This document shows positions 1,669 through 51,917 of a DNA stretch of 61,556 nt, in pieces (position 1 is the stretch's first letter; every line of letters begins with the position of its first letter). The notes under the pieces were generated by a model. It searched no databases. It worked only from the letters and a program-made list of their open reading frames with translations, and was not told the DNA's origin. The position numbers and the translations under genes are program-made. The stretch comes from a virus (Duplodnaviria > Caudoviricetes). The stretch lies in the IMG/VR virus record IMGVR_UViG_3300025165_000001, positions 1 to 61,556 of that record; one strand, given 5' to 3'.

Positions 1669-3410
1669 TAGGCAACCGCCCCCATCTGCCCTTCCCCTTG
1701 CGGCATCATTGCCTTCACGAGAGGGGCGATTTTTCCGCCACCCTCGGCCAACGCGGACAAGTCTTGAGTCTTCTGAGCCTGTCTGGCTGCTTCGGCGCGT
1801 GAGCCGCGAATAGCGTCAATCTGTTTCTGCCCGAGCGTGGCGATCGCCGGCACACCGCGATTGCGATTGATCGTGTCGCGGTACTTGTCGAAGTCGTAGC
1901 CGTCAAGAATCCACTGGTTCGGCTGCGCTCCTGTCATCTTCCACTGATTGAGTTGCATCTGAATGATCGGCATCAAGTCCTGCATGGCCTGATTCATGGC
2001 GTCGATCTCTTCCATGCGCTGAGCGCGTGCGAGCGGAGATTCAAACCTAACTTTCGGCTGTCCGCCCTGTTGGAGAATAATATCGGGCGGGGGCGGAAAC
2101 ATTCCGGCGCGGTACAAAGTATTATGGTTGCGAGCAATGATCGGAATGCCGAATTCGAATTCCCACCGGCCGTAAGTTGGGCCAAGCATTTTCTGTACGA
2201 TGTTCTGCTTTTGCTGGAAGACGTAAACCCGCATCTCCTGCTGTCCTTCGAGCGCCATCAACTGCTGAAGCATGTCAGCGTAAAAGATCCGGCGAATCAT
2301 CGCTTGCATCTTTTCGGCGTCGATCTGGGAGAAAGAATAATTGCCAACCTGGCCGGTGATGGGCGCGATCACGTTGCCTACAGGTTCGCCGGGCGCGGTT
2401 CTCACGATCGTCTTCCCCCATGGAGTCAAATCCCTGTTGCCTATCACGGACTCGTGTCTTTGCACCAATGCTGGCTTGATTCTCAGCGTCATCGCTTCAA
2501 GATCGGCCTTCGTCGCCGCATTGAGAGTGATCAAAGTATTAAGAGCTATTTCACCGAGCCCGCGGCCGTAGGGTTCGCCGTGGCATCGCGTCCACCGCGG
2601 CACACAATCTGGAAACTCCTCGTAGCCGCTTTCGGCGACAACCTTTTTCTGATCGTAATGAACGTAGCAGGAGGCCCACGGCAACGCTTTATTGCCGTAG
2701 AGCTTCTCTCCTTGTTTGCGCGGGTAGACGCCGTGAACGAATCTGAATTCGTCGGCTCTACCGTTTTCATAAGCGGTCCTCATGTCTTCGGGAAGATTGT
2801 TCAAACCCCAGAGGTCCGCCGCAGCCTTGGCTGTCTTTCGAAGTTCCAGGTAGGTTTCGTCGACCTGGTTGAGCCCATTCTCGAAGACGACAAATCGGCC
2901 GGCCTTGTGGTGAGTGTACCGCATCCCGCGAAACCCGAACTTTTCACGGCCAACGAGCTGCGGATTCTGCTCGGCGCGCATAAGCCCGGTTCCAAACGCG
3001 ATCCAGTCCATGTCAGACTCGTAGGATTCGGGATAGAATCCGCCGTAGGTGAACTGCTTCAATCCGATGTTGCGGCACTCCTCGTACCATTCGCGGGCAT
3101 CGTCGTCTCGATTTACCATATCATTCTCGTCTTCGAGACCGTGCCAGAGTGTGCCCGGACCGTGGAGATATGATCCCATCTGGCGAACTGCGAGATCGGC
3201 CGCGCTGATTCCCTCGCTGTCGTACATGCGCGACATGAGAGCTTCGCCGGGAGCCTGACGGCTTTGGACGTTGGAGCGCGTAGGTTCGATATAGGGAGCG
3301 AGCAAGTCGATCCGCTGGCGGAAATTCGCCGCGTATTTCACGCCCTCATCGTAGCGGGCAACGACTCGCGCGCCTATGGTTTTCAGTTCTTCAGAATCGC
3401 GTTGCCGCAT
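1668..3410 (-). CDS. Portal protein (T7/BPP-1-type head-tail connector)
   Basis: 580 aa; MYDSEGISAA, FGTG, PRW..CHGEPYGRGLG and RFESPLARAQR motifs typical of T7-like connectors. Confidence 0.93.
   Translation of the reverse strand: MRQRDSEELKTIGARVVARYDEGVKYAANFRQRIDLLAPYIEPTRSNVQSRQAPGEALMSRMYDSEGISAADLAVRQMGSYLHGPGTLWHGLEDENDMVNRDDDAREWYEECRNIGLKQFTYGGFYPESYESDMDWIAFGTGLMRAEQNPQLVGREKFGFRGMRYTHHKAGRFVVFENGLNQVDETYLELRKTAKAAADLWGLNNLPEDMRTAYENGRADEFRFVHGVYPRKQGEKLYGNKALPWASCYVHYDQKKVVAESGYEEFPDCVPRWTRCHGEPYGRGLGEIALNTLITLNAATKADLEAMTLRIKPALVQRHESVIGNRDLTPWGKTIVRTAPGEPVGNVIAPITGQVGNYSFSQIDAEKMQAMIRRIFYADMLQQLMALEGQQEMRVYVFQQKQNIVQKMLGPTYGRWEFEFGIPIIARNHNTLYRAGMFPPPPDIILQQGGQPKVRFESPLARAQRMEEIDAMNQAMQDLMPIIQMQLNQWKMTGAQPNQWILDGYDFDKYRDTINRNRGVPAIATLGQKQIDAIRGSRAEAARQAQKTQDLSALAEGGGKIAPLVKAMMPQGEGQMGAVA
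2539..2573. repeat. 35-bp exact direct repeat, copy inside the portal gene (other copy 3446-3480)
   Basis: TTAAGAGCTATTTCACCGAGCCCGCGGCCGTAGGG present at both positions. Confidence 0.95.
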
Positions 3411-3594
3411 TCCTGCCTAACTCCTCTTTGAGTGCGAGACACTCCTTAAGAGCTATTTCACCGAGCCCGCGGCCGTAGGGCCGACTCATTATTAACTTTC
3501 TCTTGCGCTCGTGATAAGCCCGTGTCCAGAAGCTGCTCCCCAAACCCTGCCCGTATAGTTCGCCATTTTTACTGAGGACTCTCGACTTGCCCAT
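3391..3594 (-). CDS. Small protein containing a copy of the portal PYGRGLGEIAL motif
   Basis: GAAGGAG RBS before ATG 3594; translation includes GELYGQGLG and PYGRGLGEIAL. Confidence 0.6.
   Translation of the reverse strand: MGKSRVLSKNGELYGQGLGSSFWTRAYHERKRKLIMSRPYGRGLGEIALKECLALKEELGRNAATRF
3446..3480. repeat. 35-bp exact direct repeat, copy in the mini-ORF upstream of the portal
   Basis: Identical to 2539-2573. Confidence 0.95.
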
Positions 3595-3613
3595 AGCTAG
3601 ACTCCTTCGGCGC

Positions 3614-6011: not shown

Positions 6012-6275
6012 TTAAACGCTGGTTCGATGCAAATCGGGCCTCACAAATCTAACTCCATGCTTGTCGGCTTGGTGCGCTTCGAGCTCGGCCATCCCCGGAA
6101 AGGACAGATCGCACGGCATGCAGTAACGCGCGCGGCCGGCGCCGCCAACGAAGCGATACTGCGCCTTCGTAGCCTTCTTACCCTTTCGCCGCGGCCTCCC
6201 CTTCGGCCAACCCCTCTTCAGGATCCGCGTAGAGATCTTCTCGTGGCCTTCGTAGCCGGCGCGCCAGCCGCTCAT
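6012..6275 (-). CDS. AT-hook plus C2H2 zinc-finger DNA-binding protein
   Basis: KGRPRR AT-hook-like motif; C-x2-C-x3-F-x5-L-x2-H-x4-H (CMPCDLSFPGMAELEAHQADKH). Confidence 0.6.
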   Translation of the reverse strand: MSGWRAGYEGHEKISTRILKRGWPKGRPRRKGKKATKAQYRFVGGAGRARYCMPCDLSFPGMAELEAHQADKHGVRFVRPDLHRTSV

Positions 6276-6711
6276 GACTCGATCCCAAGCGCGCGACGGG
6301 CAGCAGATAAAAGACGATGCTCAGGCGTATCGCCTAAGACCCCCTCGCAATATGCCAGGGCCGCTTCCGCCGCCCGCACGTACCGGCACGCAGCGGCCAT
6401 GTCCTCAACGAGCATTGGTCCTGTGAATCTCATCCGGTCTGCCCTGCATTTGACCAGTTCGGCCTCGATTTCGTCTAGCTTGCTCATACTCCCTGCTTTC
6501 TCAAGAGGTCGGCCTTGGCCTTGAGTGGCGCCGGTTTATACCAGTTGGGATTATTGATCGTTCTGAAACCGTTAGCGTCCTGCATTCGCCAAATCGTAGT
6601 CAGATAATCTCGACATTGTTGAGTTGTGCCATCTGGAAATCGCGTGGCATGATGAGGATCTTCGATATCCGCCATCACCTGATCGATCTTTGATTTATTT
6701 TCCGATTCCAT
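6272..6711 (-). CDS. Two small hypothetical proteins (6272-6487, 6484-6711)
   Basis: Overlapping start/stop chain. Confidence 0.5.
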
Positions 6712-11788: not shown

Positions 11789-12286
11789 CTACTCTTTAGA
11801 ACCCGGGTTGATCTCGATTGTGTTAGCATCGCCCGCCGGAGCCGTTTGCACGATGGAAATCTCGATCTTCGCCGGCCCGACTGCGATTTGCGCCCCGTCG
11901 CGGAACTTCGGATCAACGCCCTTGAGGTACAATGCTGATAGCGCACTGTCGTAGCGTCGAATCGCCTGGCCTGTTTTCATGCCCTTGTAGGATAGTGGCT
12001 CCAACCAGCCTTTCACCGCGCGCGTTTTTATGCCCTCGGCGTTTCCAGCCTCTATGATAGCTACTATCCGTACAAAAGCAGCCTGATAGTTGGCGTAGTC
12101 TTCAAGCCATTGATAATGATATAAGTGGTGGATCTTACTCAGCCTTTGAGCACCACGGATAGTTCCGGCCTGGATGTAGCCATTTAAGAATGCTCGTTGG
12201 TCCGGTAGCAGAGCTTCAGATGGGACGATAAGCGCGGATTGATCGGTAATCTCTTGCGCCGTGGCTTCTCTGTATCCAAATGCCAT
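11789..12286 (-). CDS. terS: Terminase small subunit (HTH-type)
   Basis: QRAFL...GTI..A...HYQWLE...RAVKGWLEPLSYKG...IRRYDSAL...LKG.DPKFRD pattern of small terminases. Confidence 0.7.
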   Translation of the reverse strand: MAFGYREATAQEITDQSALIVPSEALLPDQRAFLNGYIQAGTIRGAQRLSKIHHLYHYQWLEDYANYQAAFVRIVAIIEAGNAEGIKTRAVKGWLEPLSYKGMKTGQAIRRYDSALSALYLKGVDPKFRDGAQIAVGPAKIEISIVQTAPAGDANTIEINPGSKE

Positions 12287-12302
12287 GGTTCTGCCTTACT
12301 CC

Positions 12303-12318
12303 TGTTTCACGTGAAACG
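12303..12318. promoter_or_regulatory. parS-like centromere site (15/16 match to TGTTTCACGTGAAACA)
   Basis: TGTTTCACGTGAAACG; perfect 14-bp palindrome GTTTCACGTGAAAC. Confidence 0.7.
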
Positions 12319-12322
12319 CAAG

Positions 12323-12342
12323 CCTGCCTGTCGGCAGACAAG
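12323..12342. repeat. REP-like palindrome CCTGCCTGTCGGCAGACA(A/G)G, copy 1
   Basis: 18-bp identical core also at 16351-16369 (inverted) and 55607-55626. Confidence 0.75.
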
Positions 12343-12689
12343 CCCTGAGTCTCGATCGCGTGTCGCGCAAGCATCCGATTTTCTTCGACCGACTGCTTTT
12401 TCCTTCTACGACTTGCAGGGTTTTTTCTTCATTGGACTTTAGTTGTATTTTTTTCTCATGGTGAAAATAGTTTTTGCTTGCAAGCTCCCGAATTCATTTC
12501 AATCGTATGTTTCTTCAGTCGGTCCTGTAGGTTTTTCATGGCACGAATTTCTCTTGTACATAGGGGTAGAAGCATTTTTTTTTCAGAGGCAAAAAAGTTG
12601 ATATTTTGCGAAAACGATAACATGAGGGGATTGAAGAGGTAGCAACCACAGTGACAAAGCTTCCCTTGGTCGGGAAGTAAGGAGACAGC

Positions 12690-13577
12690 ATGGACGTTTA
12701 TGAAGTCATCAATCAGCGTATTATCGGCGCATTGGAAAACGGCACGGTTCCTTGGCAATGTCCATGGAAGAAGGGCGAATATGGCATGCCGCGAAACTTC
12801 GCTTCGACTAAGCCATATCGCGGAATCAATACTTTCATGTTGTCGATGACTAGCATTGCTCTTGGCTATCAGTCACCGTTTTGGGTCAGTTTCAAGCAAG
12901 CCAAGGACCTTGGCGGGCATGTCAAGGCTGGCGAAAAGTCACCGGCATTTTCGGTTTTCTACAAGCCCATGAAGAAAGAGACTGTAGATGAGAATGGCGA
13001 TACCGAGAGCGAGAGCTACTCGGTATTGCGTTACACTCCGGTGTGGAATACCGATCAATGTGACGGGCTGAAAGTGCCGGATCTATCACCGGCGGACAGT
13101 TTCAAACATGAGATTATCCCGCAGGCGCAAGCCATTGTCGATGCCATGCCGAACAGGCCCGCAGTAAATATCCGAGCATCGAACCGCGCTTTTTATTCTC
13201 CGTCGCAAGACGCGGTAACGGTTCCCGAAATGTCGCAATTTTCCCAGGCAGAAATGTTTTACTCAACCATGTTCCATGAACTAGGGCATTCGACTGGACA
13301 TAGCTCGCGACTTGCTCGTGAATTCGGTTCTTCGTTCGGAGATCATACCTACAGTAAAGAAGAGCTAGTCGCAGAGTTTACAGCCTCTTACTTGTGTGGG
13401 ATTGCAGGGATTGAAAACAGAACAATTGAAAACTCGGCGAGCTATCTCAATTCCTGGCTGACTGTACTCAAGGACAAGGCTAACAAGAAGTGGATCACCT
13501 GGGCAGCAGGACAGGCGCAAAAAGCAGCAGATTGTATCCGAGGCATACAGCAAGCGGAGTTTAAAAAAGCGGCGTGA
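12690..13577 (+). CDS. ardC: ArdC-family antirestriction protein (DUF1738 ssDNA-binding domain plus zincin-like metallopeptidase)
   Basis: GTVPWQCPW, PRNFASTKPYRGIN, WVSFKQAKDLGGHVKAGEK, AFYSPSQD, FHELGHSTGH (HExxH), YSKEELVAE, SASYLNSWL. Confidence 0.92.
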   Translation: MDVYEVINQRIIGALENGTVPWQCPWKKGEYGMPRNFASTKPYRGINTFMLSMTSIALGYQSPFWVSFKQAKDLGGHVKAGEKSPAFSVFYKPMKKETVDENGDTESESYSVLRYTPVWNTDQCDGLKVPDLSPADSFKHEIIPQAQAIVDAMPNRPAVNIRASNRAFYSPSQDAVTVPEMSQFSQAEMFYSTMFHELGHSTGHSSRLAREFGSSFGDHTYSKEELVAEFTASYLCGIAGIENRTIENSASYLNSWLTVLKDKANKKWITWAAGQAQKAADCIRGIQQAEFKKAA

Positions 13578-13667
13578 TTTTCCCCGCGTATCCTACGCGG
13601 AGGGAAACGGTAGGCTAACCACCTTCGCGCCGGTTCCGTCAAGACCGGCATAACTAGGCGTGCGCAA
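13576..13667 (+). repeat. 92-bp structured direct repeat, copy 1 (three hairpins ending in the cassette motif)
   Basis: 90/92 identical to 16258-16349. Confidence 0.93.
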
Positions 13668-13701
13668 CCAAAGCCCCGATGACACGGGGCGAGGAGGGGA
13701 A

Positions 13702-13908
13702 ATGGAACCAACCATCGAATATGAACGATACGAGGTAACGCTACCCAGCGGCGTCGTGGTACTCGGCAAGCTCTACAAAGGGGAAGTCTGCGCGTTGACA
13801 TATTCGAACCGGACTCAAGCCGAACGGTCAGCGCAACGTGAAGGCGGCGATGTAATCCGACCCCACCGAAATTTTTTGGTGCGGTTGTGGAAAAGCGAGG
13901 CGGTGTAG
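13702..13908 (+). CDS. Cassette gene, hypothetical
   Basis: GAGGAGG RBS; stop TAG is the start of the junction motif. Confidence 0.7.
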   Translation: MEPTIEYERYEVTLPSGVVVLGKLYKGEVCALTYSNRTQAERSAQREGGDVIRPHRNFLVRLWKSEAV

Positions 13909-13938
13909 GCGTGCACAACCAAAGGGAGGGCGAAGGGA

Positions 13939-14208
13939 ATGGAAATGGAACAAATTAAAATCTTTGCTGAGTATCGATCGGGTTGTTTTTGCGATAGGCC
14001 AAAACTTGGCGAACAAGGTCCGTATGTCCTAACTCAATATCGCCCACGATTCACATGGCGCGAAGGTGTCCGAGAACTCGCGTCGAAACTCGGAGCTTTT
14101 GAAATCACATTTAGTAATAAGGAAAAAAAAGCAGTCGCGTTATTGCCGTTTACCTGTAGCCACCGAGATCAACAAGTTATTGGCTTTGATAGAACGTGGA
14201 CATTCTAA
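13939..14208 (+). CDS. Cassette gene, hypothetical
   Basis: Purine-rich RBS after the motif; stop overlaps the next motif. Confidence 0.7.
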   Translation: MEMEQIKIFAEYRSGCFCDRPKLGEQGPYVLTQYRPRFTWREGVRELASKLGAFEITFSNKEKKAVALLPFTCSHRDQQVIGFDRTWTF

Positions 14209-14227
14209 GGCGTGCGCAACCGGAGGG

Positions 14228-14392
14228 ATGAAAATGGCATGGCCGATCTGTAAATTTTGCGCAGGCACTGGACTAAACCCGCAATGCGCAGAGGATGCCT
14301 GCCGTGAATGCGGAGGACGTGGGTTTATCTTACCTCGTAACGAAGCCCAACGCGCGGCAGACCAAGAGCAGGATAGGGAGATAGACGACTAG
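14228..14392 (+). CDS. Cassette gene, small DnaJ-type zinc-finger protein
   Basis: CKFCAGTG and CRECGGRG (CxxCxGxG) repeats. Confidence 0.65.
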   Translation: MKMAWPICKFCAGTGLNPQCAEDACRECGGRGFILPRNEAQRAADQEQDREIDD

Positions 14393-14416
14393 ACTTGCGC
14401 AATCAGCAGCACTGAC

Positions 14417-14722
14417 ATGACCCTCACCGCTCTACTCCGCGAACACAACGCGCTGGCTCTCCGGGGCACGGTGATGCCCCTTCCGGCCGATTACGAGGCG
14501 GCTGAACGAGGCGACTCCATGCTCCTCGAACCCATGACTTGCCACCATCAACCCAGACTGCTCAAGGATTTTAGCCCGGGCAAGAAAAATACCTGGGCTG
14601 TGCAATGCGTTGAATGCGGCAAGACTACGCGATATTTTCAAACGGCAGGTAAGGCCATTGAGGCATGGAAGGTCAAAATGTTGCGGGATGGCTGGCGTTT
14701 GGAAAGCGAGGTGCAACCATGA
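14417..14722 (+). CDS. Cassette gene, Lar/Ral restriction-alleviation-like zinc protein
   Basis: WAVQCVECG...TAGKAIEAW resembles the Lar-family C-terminus; the N-terminal CPFCG motif is degenerate. Confidence 0.5.
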   Translation: MTLTALLREHNALALRGTVMPLPADYEAAERGDSMLLEPMTCHHQPRLLKDFSPGKKNTWAVQCVECGKTTRYFQTAGKAIEAWKVKMLRDGWRLESEVQP

Positions 14723-14877
14723 CAACACGACCACTCAGAACCGTAACGATCCGAATGCCAGCGGAAATCCTCGACGCCATAGAAGCGCTGGCCGAGCTGG
14801 GCGATAGATCCACGAACGCGCAGATAGTCCGCATGCTGCGCGGGATTATCGAGGGCGAGACGGCGGACAAGGGCTAG
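14719..14877 (+). CDS. Arc/ribbon-helix-helix DNA-binding protein
   Basis: TVTIRMPAEILDAIEALAELGDRSTNAQIVRML matches the Arc repressor pattern. Confidence 0.8.
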   Translation: MTTRPLRTVTIRMPAEILDAIEALAELGDRSTNAQIVRMLRGIIEGETADKG

Positions 14878-14897
14878 GCTGGGCGCAACAAGGGGGA

Positions 14898-15122
14898 ATG
14901 AAAATGGCAACACGACAATGGACAGTTGACGAACAGGCTGAGTTGCATCGCTTGGGTCGTCTATGTGACCGTCGTAGACGCGAGACCCATGATGCGGAGT
15001 TGCGAATGCAGGACCACCACTGCAATGCGAAGACTGACGCTGCGTACTACAACGCCGTGCAAGCACTGGTCAATGCCGAGGCACAGTATTGCAGCTTCGA
15101 GGCTGGTCTTAATGTGGGCTAG
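14898..15122 (+). CDS. Cassette gene, hypothetical
   Basis: Bounded by junction motifs at both ends. Confidence 0.65.
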   Translation: MKMATRQWTVDEQAELHRLGRLCDRRRRETHDAELRMQDHHCNAKTDAAYYNAVQALVNAEAQYCSFEAGLNVG

Positions 15123-15149
15123 GCGTGCGCAACGAAGAAGGGAACGAAA

Positions 15150-15359
15150 ATGGCAAAATATGAAGTCATGTACGCGGGGCTGAGTTGTAACCACCGGCAC
15201 GATAGGCCCGGTGATTGCCGGCCATGTTTACCCAAACGGCTACGCAAGGCCCGGCTGAATTACCTGCTGACCGATGGTATTATCACCAAAATACCGCCAG
15301 CGACTGCCGCCGAACGGGAAGAACAAGACGAAGAGCTCTCGGATTATAACTGGGAGTGA
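15150..15359 (+). CDS. Cassette gene, hypothetical (Cys/His motif, acidic tail)
   Basis: Bounded by junction motifs. Confidence 0.65.
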   Translation: MAKYEVMYAGLSCNHRHDRPGDCRPCLPKRLRKARLNYLLTDGIITKIPPATAAEREEQDEELSDYNWE

Positions 15360-15389
15360 AAACTAGGCGTGGGCAACCAGGAGGGGGGA

Positions 15390-15731
15390 ATGAATATGAA
15401 AACCGTTGAACCATTTGCACAATGCCGGCGTTGCACTAGCGTGCCGCAATACCAAGTAGAATCATGGCTATACTGCGCAATGCATGTGCCGAGCTACAGC
15501 CGAGCGGAACCCGTTGAAATCCGCAAGGACACGGCGAAAATGGAACCGCGCAAATGGAAGATCTTCAAGGTCATTGGCGCCAACAACGAACAGCCGGGCA
15601 TCCAATGGGCAAGAGCCGGCATTGCGGCCCTCGATGAGCCGGCAACCGTATTGCGGATAGAGTATTTTGATACCAAGACAAAGCGTGACTTCGCCGTCGT
15701 ATCCGGCAAGCGGCCAAGTTTCGCGGTCTAA
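15390..15731 (+). CDS. Cassette gene, hypothetical with N-terminal CxxC
   Basis: GGAGG RBS following the motif at 15364. Confidence 0.6.
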   Translation: MNMKTVEPFAQCRRCTSVPQYQVESWLYCAMHVPSYSRAEPVEIRKDTAKMEPRKWKIFKVIGANNEQPGIQWARAGIAALDEPATVLRIEYFDTKTKRDFAVVSGKRPSFAV

Positions 15732-15800
15732 CCCATATCCGCCGTTACGAGGCAACTAACAAACCCCGCCGTGGTTGGTGGGAGAAAGAGACAAAGGACC

Positions 15801-16253
15801 ATGAAAACTTTACCAACAGAACTCTACGAGGCAATGAATGTTTGCCACGAGTTCATGCCGGCGACCGAGTATCGAATGATGAGAGGTTTCTTGAAGGGCA
15901 AAGAGGCTGGACACTTCGCCGACAAGTTTATTGAGTTGGCCAAGCGAATAAGTGATATGCCCAAGACCTACGAGCAAGACGGCAAGGGCGACGAGGCTAT
16001 CGTTTATCTCCATTACTTTCGAGGTAATCAGGACTGGTGGATTTACGAGAAAGACGCGGAAACCCAGGACCGACTTGGACAGCATCAAGCTTTCGGCCTT
16101 GCTGATCTTGGCTACGGTGGGGAGCTTGGCTATATTTCCATCGTGGAGCTAGTCGCGGCGGGCGTGGAGCTTGACCTGTACTTCCGACCCACGCCATTGG
16201 CGGAAATCAAAGCGAAACGGACGGCGCGGCAAGAAGCTGCTTATGGGCAATGA
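15801..16253 (+). CDS. DUF2958-like protein
   Basis: PKTYEQDGKGDEAIVYLHYF....DWWIYE...AFGLADLG.GELGYISI.EL...VELDLYF.P. Confidence 0.8.
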   Translation: MKTLPTELYEAMNVCHEFMPATEYRMMRGFLKGKEAGHFADKFIELAKRISDMPKTYEQDGKGDEAIVYLHYFRGNQDWWIYEKDAETQDRLGQHQAFGLADLGYGGELGYISIVELVAAGVELDLYFRPTPLAEIKAKRTARQEAAYGQ

Positions 16254-16257
16254 GTTC

Positions 16258-16349
16258 GATTTTCCCCGCGTATCCTACGCGGCGGGAAACGGTAGGCTAA
16301 CCACCTTCACGCCGGTTCCGTCAAGACCGGCATAACTAGGCGTGCGCAA
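16258..16349 (+). repeat. 92-bp structured direct repeat, copy 2
   Basis: 90/92 identical to 13576-13667. Confidence 0.93.
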
Positions 16350-16350
16350 A

Positions 16351-16369
16351 CTGTCTGCCGACAGGCAGG
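16351..16369. repeat. REP-like palindrome, copy 2 (inverted)
   Basis: CTGTCTGCCGACAGGCAGG. Confidence 0.75.
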
Positions 16370-16402
16370 CCTGGGTGAGAGATCGAGGCAAGGAGAACGG
16401 AC

Positions 16403-16690
16403 ATGAAACTCAACGGCAGTCATCACAAAGCGCTCGGCATTGCCCGAGCGCTCTTCGAGCAGGACGGATATCACACCCGCTACCTGGACGAGATCGAGCG
16501 GGAGATGATTGACCATGTTCCCGCGCCTATCCCAGCTACCGGCCCCTACACCATCGAACCCTGCGGCTGGCGGTCGACGTACCGTGTCCATGATGCGGCA
16601 GGAGAGCTAGTCTGCATCACTCTATACAAAAAGGGCGCCGTCGAAGTGGCGCGAAGACTGAACAAGGCGACTCCATGCTCCTCGCAGTAG
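16403..16690 (+). CDS. Hypothetical protein
   Basis: AAGGAG RBS; C-terminal VHDAAGELVCITLYKKGAVEVARRL. Confidence 0.65.
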   Translation: MKLNGSHHKALGIARALFEQDGYHTRYLDEIEREMIDHVPAPIPATGPYTIEPCGWRSTYRVHDAAGELVCITLYKKGAVEVARRLNKATPCSSQ

Positions 16691-19600
16691 TAAACGGCGT
16701 AGTCATCAACGGTGCAGAGCCTCTACTTGACAGCGCAGTGCGCCAGATGGTAGAGCGGCACAGCCCGAAGGAACCCGGCGAGTGGGTGGCGTGTTACTTG
16801 GTGGCGCTTGAGACTGTGGATCGGGCCGTGGGCCGGCGAGTGGTCGTGACGATATTGAACTGAAGGAGGACTGACATGCACCTAATAACCCCATACGCTC
16901 CACCGTCTTTTTTGAAGCCGGTGATTTTAGTCTCCACGCTGTTCAACTCCGCTACCAAGGAGACGGCAATCGAATTCGTGGACGCGCTTCACATTTGGCA
17001 CGCCCTAGATGTGGCGAACTGCCATGAAAGGAATTGCCGGGACATTATGGAGTCAGATGCGAAACACCAGGGCAGACATTCCGGCTGGCTTGTGATTGAG
17101 ACACATGCAAGCCTAGGCGCCGCGTTGGAATTCCATCTTGAGCTGACGAAGGACTTTATAAACGGCGGCACGGAGGAAGAATGGCAACAGGGATGGGGGC
17201 CGTACCTAGAACTCAGAGCGAGATTTGAGGCGGAACAAAAGAAGGAGGACTCCGATGGCTAAATTCATAATCATCGAGGAGCGTATTGACACGTATTCCG
17301 CAACGATAGAGGCGGATAGCGTTGAGCACGCGCAAAAACTGTACGACGAGGACAGTCAAGAAGTCTTCGGTAACAAGTGGGACCAGGAAGAAACTCAAAG
17401 CGTCGAGTTACGCCAAATCTACGAGCTAAACGACAAGGGAGAAAACAAAACCGCGTACATTTTCGAGAACGGCGTGATAATGGACACCGTGGACCTGGAA
17501 AAGTAAGGAGAAGCCATGAAAAACAAACACACACCGACACCTGGGCCCTGGACTGCTGGTACAGTAATCTCGAATGAGACTCGATACACGCAGCCCATTT
17601 GGGCAAACGGGATGTGCATCGCCGTGGTATACGGCGGCGTTGAACACAGATGGACGGATGAACACCGCGCAAATGTCGCAGCGATTACATCCGCGCCGAC
17701 CCTCTTGGAGCGGGTGAAGGTGCTGGAAGAAAGCGTCAAGAAGCATATCAAGGGGCAACTCTATTTGAAGGAGCGGGTGAAGGTGTTGGAAGAGGCGCTA
17801 CGGCGTATTGGAGATATGCGCCCCGAAAATCGCAACGCTCCAACCATAGCCCGCGCCGCCCTGAAGGAGAAGCCATGAGCCAGGAAGACCAGATTCAATT
17901 CGTTCTTGACGTGACAGCTCGGGCGGCGCGCGAAGTGATCGAGCATCTTAAAGATAGGCGCATCTGTGGGCCTATCACGCGACGCAAGCTACGAGACTGG
18001 GTTATCGCCGCTTGCATGGATCATGGGATAGAGGCAGGGGATAAAGAAGACTAACTCACGGCGTCGTAAATCATTCGATTTACTTTGGCCTATCGCTCGG
18101 AAGAGGAAATCAAGAGGCGGGAGGCGACAAATGGCGATATCGTGCCGTTCTAAGCCCGAACCAACGCTCTTCGAGACCGAGATCCCCTTCGCCCTGACCC
18201 CTCCGCCAAGCGACAGGCGAAGCTACGACAAGGTGACGCGGCTCTGCCCGCGGTGCGGACGGGAGTTGACGGACAAGGCGTATTTCAAGTCGAACTGTTT
18301 TCGGGGAACGTGCGGGAAGAACAAAAAGCCGTAGGCGAAAGCCGAATAATGAGGGGAGGGATAAATGCTCATTGATTTGGTTGCGGCCGAAGAGGCCGTC
18401 AAGAAGCTCAAGCTCGATTTAGGGCTGAGTCATCGGGCGTCGTGCATCGACGTGGAGCTGTGGAATCATTCGACGGGCACTAGAGAGCTACGGGTCAAGA
18501 TCCACGTATTCGATAAAGACGATATCTGCCGAGCGGGCCGCGAGTTGACTTGGGAATTGGCGCTTGAGGCCGTCAAGCTCGCCGTGTTGGGCACGTCGGC
18601 TGATCCCGGCACTCAACCGATAACCGTGAAGGTGAACGCCGGCGAGGGCTAGTCAAATGAAAGAAAGACTCTGCCGTTGGCACTGTGGGCGTAGAACCTC
18701 GAACCATTCGGGCATATGTGACGCATGCTGGGTCTTATCAAAGCCGCTACGATCGTTTGACGCTGCCGGTCATGCCGCCTGGACGGTCAAAAAGCGAGCA
18801 AAGATGGCAAGGGGGAAGTCACCAGCAAGGGTAAAGGCAGGCCAGACCCTTGCCGCGCGCTTAAAAGCCCGTGCCATGGCTCCTGTGCTCAAATAACAGA
18901 GGAAAAAGAGGTTGGTGCCATGATGATCAAACAAACCGCTCCGTTAGTTCGCCCAACATGCCCAGATGGGCGTAGGGAATACCGGTGCGCCAGATGCGGG
19001 TCATCTGCCGCCTGGGAGGAGTGCTATAACTGCAATGAGGGCTACAGCAGCCATGACTGCGGCGATGATACCTGCTGCTGCCCTGATCCCGAAGACAACG
19101 TGCGCTGCGACATCTGCCGAGGGCATGGCGGGTGGTATCAGTGCCTATCAACGCCGGAGTGGTGCGAGGCGAATCCGCTACCCGGTCGGGACTTTAAACG
19201 GGGTCAGATTGAATGGTTCAAGACGGAATAATTTTACCCCATTCCCGGGTCTCCTTCTCCCCGGGAGTCGCTGCGAGCTCAAGCCCCTTGCGTGAAGAGG
19301 GGCACTGCAAATTATGAATGAGCCAATCTGTAAACGCTGCTACGGCTACGACCGCGAAGGCAAACCGCGCGATGGCCGGGTTATCGCGTATGTATGCTCG
19401 ACGCTTGCTGACGGCAGCACGCTTAAACAGAGGGCGTGCCTAGATTGCGCTAATGACGCGCGCGCGCAGATGCTGCACAGCAAGCGTGGGGTGCCGGGAG
19501 AGTTTCATATTGAAATAATCAAAATAGGGCTTGCAAACGATTCGGCGTTGTAGTAATAGTAGTTTCCATGAAAACAAAACACAAGAAGGCCCGTTGTCGA

Positions 19601-21148: not shown

Positions 21149-22108
21149 ATGGCAGAAGAAAAAGAAGTGGCAGTAAGACGAGAACCGAGACAGTTGGCGC
21201 AAGCTGGTTTCGCGTTTCTTCCTAAGACGTGGGAGGAGCTTTACGCATACGCTAAGGAGATTGCACAAACGGACTTCGTGCCGAATGATTTACGCGGCAA
21301 GCCGGGCGCCGTACTGGCCTGCTGGCAGTTCGGCCAGGAGGTCGGTCTAGCGCCAATGGCGGCGCTACAGAGCATCGCCGTAATTAACGGGCGCCCGTCC
21401 CTATGGGGCGATGGCGCGTTGGCGGTCGTGCGAGCAAATCCGCTATGCGAATACGTCCGAGAACTCCGTCCAGACGAAGCGCTCAAAGCCGGATACGGCG
21501 AATGCACCGTCAAACGTCGAGACGACGATGTACCTATAATGCGCCGCTTCACGAAAGAGGAAGCGGAAGTTGCGGGCTTGTGGGGCGGAAAATCCACGGA
21601 CGCGGCAAAAGCAAAACTTGAGCCGTGGAGCAAATACCCTGGTCGCATGTTGCAGATGAGAGCGCGAGCCTGGGCGATGCGGGATGCAATTCCAGAAGCC
21701 TTACGAGGTATCTCTATACGCGAAGAAGTCGAAGACATGGAACCCCGCGACGTTACGCCCGAACCACTCAAGATTCCACAGCCGCTACGAGAGGTAAAAG
21801 ATGAGCCACAAAAAACGGGACTGGATGCTGCTCATGAAATGGCATCTGAGCAAGATCAACAGGAAGATCAATCAACTGACGCAGGAGCGCAAAGCGCTGA
21901 TAGCGGAGACGAGGCGGGAGAAAAACAGGATAATCCACCGCAAAAAAAGAGCATCGAAGAAATCGCGCTCGCCGAGATCGCAGGGTACAGCAAGGACACA
22001 TTTCCGAACGCGAAAGACCTAAACAAATACCTCAAGGGCCAGAGCGGGAAGGTGCAGGCGCGGATCTGCCAGGCTTTCAACGACCGACGAAAGGAATTGG
22101 GATTGTAG
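21149..22108 (+). CDS. RecT/Red-beta-like single-strand annealing recombinase
   Basis: FVPNDLRGKPG...GQEVGLAPMAALQSIAVINGRPSLWGD...WSKYPGRMLQMRARAWAMRDAIPEAL. Confidence 0.8.
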   Translation: MAEEKEVAVRREPRQLAQAGFAFLPKTWEELYAYAKEIAQTDFVPNDLRGKPGAVLACWQFGQEVGLAPMAALQSIAVINGRPSLWGDGALAVVRANPLCEYVRELRPDEALKAGYGECTVKRRDDDVPIMRRFTKEEAEVAGLWGGKSTDAAKAKLEPWSKYPGRMLQMRARAWAMRDAIPEALRGISIREEVEDMEPRDVTPEPLKIPQPLREVKDEPQKTGLDAAHEMASEQDQQEDQSTDAGAQSADSGDEAGEKQDNPPQKKSIEEIALAEIAGYSKDTFPNAKDLNKYLKGQSGKVQARICQAFNDRRKELGL

Positions 22109-23633: not shown

Positions 23634-24080
23634 GATTACGAAAACTCAGGTCAGTAAAGGAGAAAGGGGAAATAAGATGGCAAGAAAGAAAAGTGCGCTG
23701 GTGGAACTTAATCGAGACAGGCGATCATGGTCGTTGCGCGTAAGCTCGACTGATGAGGTACTCTTGAAGGACATCGCGAATGCTATCGGCCAAGCAAGAA
23801 GCCGCGGAATCGACATCCTCAACACGGTGGACCCGTTGGCCGGTATCGATGCCAAACCCCGCAAGGTGAACGCGAAGAAGCCGGCGACGCCGGCAGAAGG
23901 GAAACCTCATGAAACAAATAGAGATTGAAACTTCAACCTACTGGCAGCAAGTCTATCTCAACGCGCGGTGTAATTCCGGTGAGTATCACGGCGACAAACT
24001 GCCGGTGATGAATTGGGACTGGCCCAAAAATGGATTTCTCACACGGCGGCGCGCCGAGTTGGCGGTACAGGAGGCGCAAG

Positions 24081-24863
24081 ATGAAATTCGAAATCAAAAA
24101 TCAATATTCCGGCTTTGTGATTTTTAGTCTCGAAACTGACAGCTTGAAGCTGTGCGTTGAGGTGGCGATTAAATCCGGGTCCGACTTGAGCGGGGCCTAC
24201 TTGAGCTGGGCCGACTTGAGCGGGTCCGACTTGAGCGGGGCCGACTTGAGCAAGGCCAACTTGAGCAAGGCCAACTTGAGCTGGGCCGACTTGAGCGGGT
24301 CCGACTTGAGCGGGGCCTACTTGAGCTGGGCCGACTTGAGCGGGTCCGACTTGAGCAAGGCCAACTTGAGCGGGTCCGACTTGAGCGGGGCCGACTTGAG
24401 CGGGTCCGACTTGAGCGGGGCCGACTTGAGCAAGGCCAACTTGAGCGGGTCCGACTTGAGCGGGGCCAAAAATTTTAATAAGCATTTAACGACACCGCTA
24501 CGGATTCTCTATGATCAACCTGGCCCTATTCGAGCCTACAAGCTCGTCAACGAACGAGGCGAAGGTCCATATGCAGTCACTAACGGTTATGCGGCGATCA
24601 ATTATTTTGAGGCCGAAGAATTCAGCGTGCAAACGATTGATGAGGACGAAAATAAGCAATGCGGCGCAGGTATCAACTTGGCCTCGCTGGATTGGTGCAT
24701 GAAGGAGTGGAAACCGAACTCTCGGATTCTGATTATGGAGTTTTTCGCCAATGAACCGAAAGGCAATCTTTGCGTGCCTACAGCTACAGATGGGAAATTC
24801 CGGGTCAAGCATTGCCGTAAAGTCGGAGAAAAAGATTTGAAAGAAATCGGCTTGCTAAAGTGA
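24081..24863 (+). CDS. Pentapeptide-repeat protein
   Basis: 19 (A/S)(D/N/Y)LS(G/K/W) repeats; C-terminal CGAGIN...TDGKFRV domain. Confidence 0.88.
   Translation: MKFEIKNQYSGFVIFSLETDSLKLCVEVAIKSGSDLSGAYLSWADLSGSDLSGADLSKANLSKANLSWADLSGSDLSGAYLSWADLSGSDLSKANLSGSDLSGADLSGSDLSGADLSKANLSGSDLSGAKNFNKHLTTPLRILYDQPGPIRAYKLVNERGEGPYAVTNGYAAINYFEAEEFSVQTIDEDENKQCGAGINLASLDWCMKEWKPNSRILIMEFFANEPKGNLCVPTATDGKFRVKHCRKVGEKDLKEIGLLK
24177..24467. repeat. 15-bp tandem repeat (about 19 units, invariant ACTTGAGC core)
   Basis: gggtccgacttgagc-type units read directly. Confidence 0.95.
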
Positions 24864-25024: not shown

Positions 25025-25351
25025 ATGAAGCGGCAACCGGAGATAACCACAAAATCCGTCATCGTTCACGCCTTGCGCCTCCTCTGGCTTCATTCTCGTG
25101 AGCGACGCGCTGCGCTGAAACGCGACGGTTATAGCTGCATTTCGTGCCATCGGAAGCAAAGCGTCGCAAAAGGAAAAGAATTCAAAGTCCAAGTTCACCA
25201 TGTTGAGGGAACCTTGAATTGGGAGTTGATGATCCAATATATTCACAATCATCTTTTAGTTGACCCGCGATTTTTGGAAACGCTTTGCAAGGAATGCCAT
25301 AAAAAGGAGACCGATGCCAACAGGAATCTATCCACGAATACCAGCGATTGA
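25025..25351 (+). CDS. HNH-family endonuclease (short)
   Basis: ALKRDGYSCISC...VQVHH...LETLCKECH. Confidence 0.7.
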   Translation: MKRQPEITTKSVIVHALRLLWLHSRERRAALKRDGYSCISCHRKQSVAKGKEFKVQVHHVEGTLNWELMIQYIHNHLLVDPRFLETLCKECHKKETDANRNLSTNTSD

Positions 25352-25829
25352 GCGATTTGAGAAAGGCTACATTCCCGAACCGAATACCGGCTGTTGGATT
25401 TGGCTTGGCGGAATATCTACCGCAGGCTACGGCTTGCTTTCATTCGGCGCTGCACACCATGGTTACGCACACCGATTTTCTTATTTGACATTTAAGGGCA
25501 ACATACCTGAAGGATTGGAAATAGATCATCTTTGTCGAATTCGATCGTGTTGCAATCCTCAACATCTTGAGGCTGTTGATCGCAGAACTAATATCATGCG
25601 AGGGATTGGCCCGGAAACTCTGGCCGAAAAACAACGCAATCTAAAAATATGCAAACAAGGTCATTCACTCGCTGATGCATATTTGAGCACGGCTTTTATC
25701 CGTGGAAAGATACGAACTTGGCGACGCTGCAAAAGGTGTAGCGCGATCAGTTGTCGAAAGTATCGGCATAGCAAGATCTGTAAGGACGACCACGAGGAGC
25801 GAACGGAGCGAAGACGTAGGATCGGATAA
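25314..25829 (+). CDS. HNH homing endonuclease
   Basis: EPNTGCWIW, YAHRFSY, EIDHLCRIRSCCNPQHLEAV, CKQGH. Confidence 0.85.
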   Translation: MPTGIYPRIPAIERFEKGYIPEPNTGCWIWLGGISTAGYGLLSFGAAHHGYAHRFSYLTFKGNIPEGLEIDHLCRIRSCCNPQHLEAVDRRTNIMRGIGPETLAEKQRNLKICKQGHSLADAYLSTAFIRGKIRTWRRCKRCSAISCRKYRHSKICKDDHEERTERRRRIG

Positions 25830-51099: not shown

Positions 51100-51917
51100 T
51101 TACCGTCGTCTGCGTCTGCGAAGCCAGGCCGACATTCCACCGACGCCGCCACCGATTATGCCGATCAACCCGCTGTAGCTCCACCCGGCCTGTCGCCGCC
51201 ACGCTTCATCCTTGCTTGCGTTCGGCGTGACGCCGGGACCGAGTAGAAAAAACGGCACACCCACGGCTGCTCGACGTTTCTCTGCTGAATCAATGGCCAT
51301 CAGGGAGCATTCCCTTTTGTCTCAGTATAGGTCGTCCCGTTATCGCTCACGTCTTTTTCCCATAATGCCGCTTCCGCATCGTCCTTAAACTTTTTCTTTG
51401 TTGCGGTCACGTCAACGCCGTTTCGCAAGGCTTGATACATTCGATTTATCTTAGCCGCCAGTGTGGCCGTTGCTGCCGGAACCCCCGTCGGCTCGGCATA
51501 GGTGTCAGTCGCCAAGGCATCCACCACCTCGGCGTTCACCTCGGCTGCTGACAGCGGCGTCTCTTCGTTCACATCCACGATAACATCCGGCGTAGTCGTG
51601 TCGCCGGCTAATCCGATCACATACGCTTTCAACACGTCCGTGGCGTTGAGGCTCACCGCCATCGAGGCAAAGGCTATCGCCGTATCTCCGCTGAGCGCGT
51701 TGAAAGCTGTTCTGGCGAGCACATAGGCCGATCCCGCGCCCGCTCGTTGAACTGTCAGGTAGGCGTAATAAACGCCGTTACCTGCAATCTGATCGAGGAA
51801 AATATTGACGTAGAGCTTTCTGATCCTTGTCGTGTTGGTAAATGTGCTCACCAGCAAAGCCGTGGCAATGTTCTGGTTACTGAGAGTCTCGGTGTCGACC
51901 TGTGTCAGAAAAGCCAT
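51100..51917 (-). CDS. Two putative structural proteins (51100-51300, 51300-51917)
   Basis: Coupled ORFs in the late operon. Confidence 0.55.

Follow-up and report, generated by a model that had tools for sequence, protein, structure and literature searches.

Small early genes of a podovirus-like phage are joined by copies of one short motif, TAGGCGTGCGCAAC, whose core recurs at gene junctions in two other phages. The phage is IMG/VR record IMGVR_UViG_3300025165_000001, a complete virus record of 61,556 bp with terminal repeats; this whole stretch of DNA is called the window below. Eight copies of the motif follow one another in a 2.7-kb block behind ardC. The 12-nt core, GGCGTGCGCAAC, is identical at 12 of 12 positions in the phages G003 and G001, where the flanking sequence is not common. 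Since the same junction stands between different genes in different phages, and in this way marks exchangeable gene slots, the core is probably part of a portable junction that marks points of gene exchange. The notable part is the conservation across phages of a core that is not a promoter. By analogy, the best reading is an adaptor akin to the promoter-early stem-loops (PeSLs) of T4-type phages and the Start-Associated Sequences (SAS) of mycobacteriophages, that is, a conserved junction element in a hyperplastic early region.

A repeated junction in the early operon

All eight motif copies listed in an earlier note on this DNA were found, each at its position and letter for letter (Table 1). 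Allowing at most one mismatch, TAGGCGTGCGCAAC matches six times (13655, 13906, 14207, 15120, 15364 and 16337), always on the plus strand; the shuffle expectation is 0.02 and none of 100 shuffles reached six. The remark of the note that the motif was not noticed elsewhere was borne out by a scan of the whole record at the same stringency, which gave six forward, no reverse and no control matches, with none outside 13655-16350. At up to three mismatches, the whole window has 11 matches against 6.8 expected, which is not significant alone. From start to start, the eight copies are spaced by 251, 301, 183, 485, 245, 244 and 973 nt. The tetranucleotide CTAG is depleted three-fold genome-wide (79 occurrences versus 238 expected), yet it is present in six of the eight copies.

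Every copy has the sense orientation and sits in the untranslated stretch that separates a stop codon from the Shine-Dalgarno sequence (SD) behind it. As the note had claimed, the TAG or TAA of the motif is itself the stop codon of the upstream open reading frame (ORF) in five copies out of eight (13906, 14206 for the TAA, 14390, 14875 and 15120). A separate SD follows the core, which stands 13-55 nt from the start codon, and within the window the core is kept while the spacers to the SD vary in length and sequence. The similar ribosome-binding site (RBS) and start module described behind most copies was confirmed for six of the eight; it is GGRAAT(G)RAAATGG-like (repeat families D5 and D14), and copies 14390 and 16337 have AGSAGMACKGACATG (family D6) as the following module instead. 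A GC hairpin precedes the SD after copies 1 and 8 only, the other six copies running directly into the SD. Likewise, a stem-loop test found no neighbouring hairpin for six of the eight copies, and no T-run after any of them.

The genes joined in this manner do not resemble one another. All-against-all blastp of 12 ORFs gave no pair better than E=0.002, in agreement with the earlier description of unrelated small genes sitting between standardised junctions. For two cassette ORFs (ORF 2 and ORF 8), the ESM Atlas gave no usable match.

Two 92-nt direct repeats, absent from the earlier note (Table 1), have motif copies 1 and 8 as their final 13-14 nt. Each repeat begins at the stop codon of the preceding gene, ardC and the DUF2958-like gene, respectively, and together they bracket a 2,682-bp block with nine ORFs. 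The repeat holds two clear hairpins, CCGCGTA-TCC-TACGCGG and GCCGGT-TCCGTCAAG-ACCGGC. There is fair support, by analogy, for taking this bracketed block as the topology expected of the single-crossover insertion of a circle, or of a deletion substrate. Rfam gave no match to the 92-nt element, which could serve as a processing site of the RNase III type, as a put-like antiterminator RNA or as a hairpin bound by a protein. A loose-pattern scan for the element, poorly designed and returning at least 111 stretches, placed the hairpin in no examined locus beyond the window and L092, a relative described below.

Two further motif-like stretches were seen in the window. A gapped core, GCGTG-TCG-CGCAA, is found at 12358-12371, where terS and ardC diverge from their control region; it may be due to chance, since such matches number 4 versus 1.4 expected, which is not significant. 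In addition, a degenerate motif-like CTAGCGTGCCGCAAT occurs at 15436-15450, inside ORF 15390-15731. The ESM Atlas record of the protein of this ORF begins 28 residues further in, past CTAGCGTGCCGCAAT, so that the ORF may have a one-time junction as its 5' portion.

The core in two other phages

The exact 14-mer was found in 85 IMG/VR contigs, with one exact match each, and 17 fetched loci had at least two matches at up to two mismatches. Among these 17, we inspected L073, L033 and the records of L030, L036 and L082; in the remaining 12, the matches are mostly kilobases apart. Within the inspected set, a junction context was found only in L073 (phage G001) and L082 (phage G003), and the matches in L033, G002 and G004 were rejected as they lie inside long coding sequence, with no junction.

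G003 is a 39-kb record with two copies. One is fused to the stop of a ribbon-helix-helix (RHH) gene whose product is 48% identical to the RHH protein of the window. It is followed by CAAAGCCCCG-CTGACC-CGGGGCGAGGAGG, and 42 of 46 nt, from the TAG to the SD, match window 13655-13700. The second copy, CTAGGCGTGCGCAACCGGAGGGG, has 19 identical nt in common with window copy 3. G001 is a 59-kb record (57% complete) with three good copies and a degenerate one, downstream of an exonuclease and an HNH gene; these copies precede a small membrane protein, a secreted HNH-like protein, two tiny ORFs and a 241-aa protein. The orientation is the same in 13 of 13 copies over the three phages. The stop codon overlaps the motif in 5/8 copies of the window, 1/2 of G003 and 2/3 of G001.

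The earlier note had proposed checking whether different genes occupy the same motif-bounded slots. The outcome is positive: the genes on either side of the G003 and G001 cores show no detectable similarity to window genes. With a threshold of E≤1e-4, the window has in common with G003 only the RHH protein, three small ORFs and tail/virion proteins, and with G001 only a distant exonuclease, one small ORF and tail proteins. No early-region protein is common to all three phages. The only protein robustly common to them, at 57-66% identity, is a 205-aa protein without a PHROG family, encoded at window 51300-51917 on the minus strand beside a beta-helix tail-spike gene. This protein hints at a common host or receptor. 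The host itself was not reached by sequence matching: a 22-mer searched in 185,579 species genomes gave two matches, both in ordinary coding sequence without nearby repeats, and neither a host nor a prophage was found. Relatives of the RHH protein in IMG/VR comprise that of G003 plus one from an unrelated high-GC phage (L237) without the motif. A literature search with the core as a string returned unrelated primer and marker sequences only.

Relatives without the motif carry junctions of their own

A blastn search of GenBank phages with 5 kb of the window, at a distant setting, gave no match. ArdC-based searches of IMG/VR and JGI metagenomes recovered three groups of relatives, L092/L218 (78% ArdC identity), L221/L222 (65-68%) and L223/L224/L093 (64%). 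In the closest of these, L092/L218, RecT is 53% identical, the exonuclease 69% and the next gene 56%. This relative lacks the entire array: it has no copy of the motif, and whereas 6 of 31 early-region proteins of the window have a homologue there, none of the nine block ORFs does. A single look-alike of the 92-nt element is present (L218 9655-9745). In its third hairpin it keeps the 9-nt loop TCCGTCAAG, with the stem rewritten from GCCGGT/ACCGGC to GCCCGCC/GGCGGGC, and the stem of the first hairpin differs too.

These relatives repeat junctions of their own. In L218, AAGGAGATGA occurs four times, and CTAATATCGCTC(T/C)CC plus hairpins twice. In L223, GGAGTAACTGACCATG serves as a junction three to four times; at 2960-3600, upstream of ardC, four consecutive genes of about 60 aa each stand behind an identical GGAGTAACTGACCATG. 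A second portable junction type, CTA(GCC)ATATCGCTC(T/C)CC..GAGCC.AA. followed by a hairpin and an SD, was found twice in L218 (8034-8110 and 9388-9460) and once in G003 (L226, around 4566-4500, minus strand), in the latter alongside the type-1 core. Its CGCTCT resembles lambdoid boxA, with a boxB-like hairpin after it. Since L218 and L223 have junction repeats of their own, standardised junctions are a habit of this phage group and the ardC-recT region is hyperplastic.

Two side observations concern these repeats. In the window, an AGGAG.AC.GACATG module that is near-identical to GGAGTAACTGACCATG stands before three genes (14405, 16391 and 16864). In L218, GGAACCGAAT and ATTCGGTTCC repeats at 6150-6460, in both orientations, lie inside or beside a replication-type gene and are iteron-like, as at an origin.

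Candidate functions rejected for the core

Known types of element were compared with the core and rejected. As regards a sigma-70 promoter, a scan for promoters predicts none at the copies, neither conserved hexamers nor TAnnnT are present in the 44 nt ahead of the 13 copies, and any downstream -10 would initiate transcripts at or past the ATG. As regards a structured RNA, Rfam gave nothing credible in 12200-17000 at E≤5, and the 13 junctions have no common folding partner (mean paired probability 0.41-0.75). A wobble-tolerant complement search for an antisense or small RNA partner in the phage returned 14 matches against 15.7 expected, and the count observed for a conserved hairpin-loop complement was reached by 7 of 100 shuffles. 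Restriction-site logic is not apparent, TGCGCA occurring 18 times versus 16.9 expected. Read-through of the TAG is not indicated either: the next ATG is in frame with the motif stop in three cases of five, indistinguishable from chance. An integron cassette array would differ in having IntI and attC inverted repeats; neither was found here, there being no integrase and no attC-like inverted repeat or consistent hairpin at the core.

A proposed portable adaptor and its alternatives

In the reading that we prefer, the adaptor would consist of a stop codon, the 12-nt core, an optional hairpin, an SD and a start codon, and would join small accessory genes after ardC. The core would be a cis-acting recognition site within the transcribed spacer, read in RNA (nascent or mature) or else in the DNA ahead of the elongating polymerase, and its reader would tune expression of the downstream cassette. 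Since the adaptor and RBS module amount to 25-46 nt of common sequence, and the flanking elements to 92 nt, the repeats could supply the homology that RecT-type recombination uses. This route would let cassettes, or the 2,682-bp block as a whole, be gained and lost, as proposed for the T4 PeSLs. Two premises of the earlier note are in line with this picture: the array is integrase-free, as domain searches of the complete window genome found no tyrosine or serine recombinase, and a RecT-like annealase is indeed encoded (Table 1). The evolutionary layer of this reading, in which a portable adaptor running from stop codon to SD borders accessory genes that can be exchanged, has fair support. The sharply bounded core with its free flanks suggests a sequence-specific reader, which is more likely host- than phage-encoded because no early protein is common to the three phages. 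Taken whole, as a portable exchange-point junction whose core is a non-promoter cis site read by a putative, probably host, factor, the reading is tentative and we place it somewhat below an even chance.

Several observations weigh against it. A two-copy pattern scan of IMG/VR gave no match, and the core occurs in three phages only. No recombinant joints were seen in the contigs of four metagenome runs, which is weak evidence either way given that contigs drop rare variants; the contigs of these runs are identical to the window and end at the 92-nt repeats, as expected for assembly graphs, with stretches without cover in runs X16 and X19. Moreover, 12 nt is shorter than RecT-type annealing would need. 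The shuffling by microhomology recombination that the earlier note had put forward thus found no backing, with no joints in these contigs and a core that alone is short for such annealing. General homologous recombination also explains a sharply bounded 12-nt core less well than a sequence-specific binder does. The location of an RHH gene directly upstream of a core copy in two phages fits a phage-encoded DNA binder over a host factor. Finally, with a core-to-start range of 13-55 nt, no single steric mechanism at the ribosome site would hold for all copies.

The phage-encoded binder in question is the Arc-like RHH protein of the array, for which the earlier note had already suggested that the motif is an operator. 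The protein would accumulate after infection, bind before each cassette as an operator or roadblock, and shut the accessory early genes off, much as Reg576 does on plasmid p576 or, like a stoperator, by stopping the elongating polymerase. It passes the Pfam Arc cut-off, its G003 homologue has the same T-x-T/S-x-R beta-strand face and likewise carries a core at its stop codon, and the motif-less relatives L218, L221 and L223 are without an RHH homologue in the DNA examined. The core also holds the palindrome TGCGCA, and copy 4 the 8-bp palindrome TTGCGCAA. A precedent is Reg576, which controls ardC and other establishment genes via repeated heptamers (PMC6294495). However, no RHH homologue turns up in the 59 kb of G001 (a 57% complete record), which has three good copies with 16 kb of sequence on either side. 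No copy lies in 12290-12690 upstream of ardC, nor upstream of the RHH operon of G003, where other repeats sit and where binding would be expected if the RHH protein regulated itself. Control would not extend to ardC, which precedes the first copy. A single 12-nt core makes up each site, as opposed to the tandem or dual sites usual for RHH tetramers, and an integrase-free phage would not need prophage-type silencing. Overall, the evidence on this suggestion is mixed: the RHH gene is present in two of the three motif phages, but it is absent from 59 kb of the third and no promoter region has a copy, and we consider the suggestion unlikely. The RHH protein is no likelier a reader than a host factor that works on the transcribed spacer, since the three phages share no early protein but do share a host-range-linked one.

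The sharp bounds of the conserved core and the freedom of its flanks would also suit a site at which some dedicated DNA enzyme acts in a sequence-specific way, for instance an HNH endonuclease (nicking or homing) or a recombinase that has escaped recognition, in a site-specific, integron-like cassette exchange without an integrase. HNH genes are frequent, with one in the window (25260-25829), several in L092 and one directly upstream of the first G001 copy, and the same junction stands between different genes in three phages. On the other side, no enzyme is linked to the core, the three phages have no early-region protein in common, no joints appeared in the contigs of the four runs, and no inverted-repeat or attC-like structure surrounds the core; we consider such an enzyme improbable. 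As low a probability attaches to an integrase-free, integron-like exchange system in which a putative dedicated factor recognises the core and makes cassette capture site-specific among unrelated phages that infect one host. The 2,682-bp block, made up of nine genes and one 92-nt element, would then have come in as a circle through a single crossover at that element, with individual genes being swapped at the cores. Functionless scars, left by recent serial duplication of one junction inside the window phage, would account for the clustering of the copies in 2.7 kb, and the 98% identity of the 92-nt repeats does suggest a recent duplication. This explanation is largely refuted by a core that is identical at 12/12 positions in two phages without common flanks, and that is conserved in the window while SD spacers differ in length and sequence; we regard it as very improbable. 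Finally, the core could be a compact promoter, used by an alternative sigma or by some transcription factor of phage or host that has gone unrecognised, each cassette being its own transcription unit and the hairpins after copies 1 and 8 acting as 5'-end stabilisers. A hairpin and then an SD directly after two copies are what is expected downstream of a start site; in L092 the look-alike of the 92-nt element is followed by a canonical sigma-70 promoter, TTGACT-17-TAAAAG, where the window has the motif. PeSLs are themselves promoters. Nevertheless, the core is GC-rich and has no TAnnnT, no conserved -35 and no conserved spacing. The window genome yielded neither a T7-type RNA polymerase nor a sigma factor (sigma-70 domain), although the single polymerase search with PF00940 is uninformative alone, its control having given no match in any genome. 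Judging from L092 and L218, the hosts of the group use canonical sigma-70 promoters, and we give the promoter explanation only a slight chance.

Comparison with known systems

PeSLs of T4-type phages share several features with the window junctions (Arbiol et al. 2010, PMC2839356; Comeau et al. 2014, PMC4122927). They are short conserved intergenic cassettes that separate ORFans of a hyperplastic early region, and each finishes with the SD and start codon of the gene behind it. It is at these junctions that relatives differ, through indels or replacements, as found for the window core too. No integrase takes part, and the phage is proposed to exchange genes with its own recombination machinery. 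Insertion or excision of a mini-circle would be expected to yield, or to start from, a block with one copy on either side, a place that the 92-nt repeats take here. In contrast, a sigma-70-like promoter and a stem-loop terminator define PeSLs, whereas the window core lacks promoter features and six of its eight copies lack a hairpin. The settings differ as well, T4-type host and phage on one side and a podovirus-like phage on the other, for which neither mini-circles nor joints were seen in the contigs of the four runs.

SAS and ESAS of Cluster K mycobacteriophages (Pope et al. 2011, PMC3203893) are asymmetric motifs of about 13 bp, found in one orientation before different families of non-structural genes only; the upstream stop codon is sometimes inside the motif, and some of the copies carry an inverted repeat in addition. 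All these traits are found in the window junctions. The SAS function is described as still unproven (PMC12699233). SAS contain the SD (AGGAG) at 3-7 bp from the start and number 9-20 or more over half the genome, whereas the window core excludes the SD, lies 13-55 nt away and is confined to one 2.7-kb block.

Stoperators of Cluster A mycobacteriophages are likewise asymmetric 13-bp sites in short intergenic gaps, oriented with transcription (PMC9283540). Unlike the eight sites of the window, which lie in one block with none at a promoter, they number more than 20 genome-wide and include a true early-promoter operator (PMC9283540). They are bound by the monomeric immunity repressor of a temperate phage, with a helix-turn-helix and a stoperator domain (PMC9283540); here there is no integrase and the RHH protein is the sole candidate binder, in searches of which none was aimed at an L5-type repressor. 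The Reg576 operators and EGeRS2 of plasmid p576 and the pLS20 family resemble the array in another way: variable establishment genes led by ardC have a repeated short motif, an RHH protein is encoded among them, and some motif pairs lie just upstream of an RBS (PMC6294495, PMC8708921). However, those systems use a dual heptamer, TTATCCC twice, at sigma-A promoters, with ardC under control (PMC6294495, PMC8708921), whereas the window has a single 12-nt core, no promoters and ardC upstream of all copies.

If the core and its adaptor mark or promote exchange points, they would provide a sequence handle for accessory early genes of uncultured phages, an expected pool of anti-defence and host-takeover genes. 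If true, this would extend the PeSL idea beyond T4-like phages to a non-promoter element. A conserved GC-rich intercistronic site in phages without a common early protein would point to a new host or phage factor acting between cistrons.

Gene content of the window

The source metagenomes of the phage are groundwater and soil. Its structural genes resemble those of podoviruses, with a portal (phrog_332), a tail tubular protein (phrog_376), an internal virion protein and a major head protein, and Rfam at gathering threshold detects only tRNA in the whole window. After ardC, the rightward early operon comprises about 25 small ORFs, then the RecT-like annealase, an exonuclease and an HNH endonuclease. 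ArdC has an N-terminal ArdC-N domain, which is single-stranded-DNA-binding, and a C-terminal zincin metallopeptidase domain, the HExxH motif reading HELGH in the translation.

The earlier note had named ArdC and Lar-like proteins as countering restriction, and DUF2958 as frequent in the leading regions of mobile elements. For ArdC the call is solid, with both Pfam domains matched, and it is the sole solid anti-defence call in the array. The Lar-like call did not hold (17.9 bits versus a Pfam cut-off of 28.6). As for DUF2958, the Pfam score falls just under the cut-off, and the protein has a PHROG match (phrog_5203). The remaining ORFs are ORFans. A counter-defence role of the nine ORFs is a fair guess from their location beside ardC at the head of the early operon; they are reasonable, if unproven, candidates for counter-defence screens.

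Table 1 Coordinates of the junction elements and genes in the window
Feature	Position	Strand	Remarks
terS (small terminase)	11789-12286	leftward	opens the leftward late operon
ardC	12690-13577	+	first gene of the rightward early operon; Pfam PF08401 4.5e-32, PF18818 3.3e-35; phrog_7245 7.4e-74
92-nt structured repeat, copy 1	13576-13667	+	from direct-repeat search (D1); folds
Motif copy 1, TAGGCGTGCGCAAC	13655-13668	+	TAG not a stop codon in use
Hairpin A, GCCCCG-ATGACA-CGGGGC	13673-13690	+	between motif 1 and SD; also after the motif in phage G003
Cassette ORF 1, 68 aa	13702-13908	+	no family; stop is the TAG of motif 2
Motif copy 2, TAGGCGTGCACAAC	13906-13919	+	
Cassette ORF 2, 89 aa	13939-14208	+	ORFan; TAA stop overlaps motif 3
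Motif copy 3, (T)AAGGCGTGCGCAAC	14207-14220	+	
Cassette ORF 3, 52 aa	14234-14392	+	CxxC zinc-finger-like; DnaJ_CXXCXGXG below cut-off
Motif copy 4, TAGACTTGCGCAAT	14390-14403	+	degenerate, 3 mismatches; holds palindrome TTGCGCAA
Cassette ORF 4, 101 aa	14417-14722	+	zinc-ribbon; Lar resemblance weak, below cut-off; ATGA overlap with RHH gene
Ribbon-helix-helix (Arc-like) protein, 52 aa	14719-14877	+	Pfam Arc 21.5 bits versus cut-off 20.4; stop is the TAG of motif 5
Motif copy 5, TAGGCTGGGCGCAAC	14875-14889	+	1-nt insertion
Cassette ORF 6, 74 aa	14898-15122	+	no family; stop is the TAG of motif 6
Motif copy 6, TAGGCGTGCGCAAC	15120-15133	+	
Cassette ORF 7, 69 aa	15150-15359	+	no family; TGA stop 5 nt before motif 7
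Motif copy 7, TAGGCGTGGGCAAC	15364-15377	+	
Cassette ORF 8, 113 aa	15390-15731	+	ORFan; no motif behind it
DUF2958-like protein	15801-16253	+	last gene of the block; phrog_5203 5.6e-19; Pfam DUF2958 20.8 bits versus 21
92-nt structured repeat, copy 2	16258-16349	+	98% identical to copy 1 (2 differences)
Motif copy 8, TAGGCGTGCGCAAA	16337-16350	+	
Hairpin B, GTCTGCC-GACA-GGCAGGC	16352-16376	+	between motif 8 and SD of ORF 16403-16690
RecT-like single-strand annealing protein	21149-22108	+	phrog_561 1.6e-40; candidate driver of recombination between repeats
HNH endonuclease	25260-25829		early operon

Three further repeats were seen in or near these features. Hairpin B (18-25 nt, arms 92% complementary) recurs inverted at 12316-12340 in the leader of the leftward terS, giving one late and one early gene a common leader hairpin. 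A 27-nt repeat, CTGAAC.AGGCGACTCCATGCTCCTCG, occurs at 14502-14528 and 16658-16684 with 96% identity; its second copy holds the start codon of ORF 16675-16863, and the first lies inside ORF 14417-14722. The real start of the latter ORF may be the internal ATG at 14519, or the ORF may be a fusion made at the joint of the 27-nt repeat. Lastly, a 277-aa pentapeptide-repeat protein is encoded at 24030-24863, with a long A/S-D-L-S-G/K run, a DNA period of 15 nt and 10-mers that recur up to 13 times.

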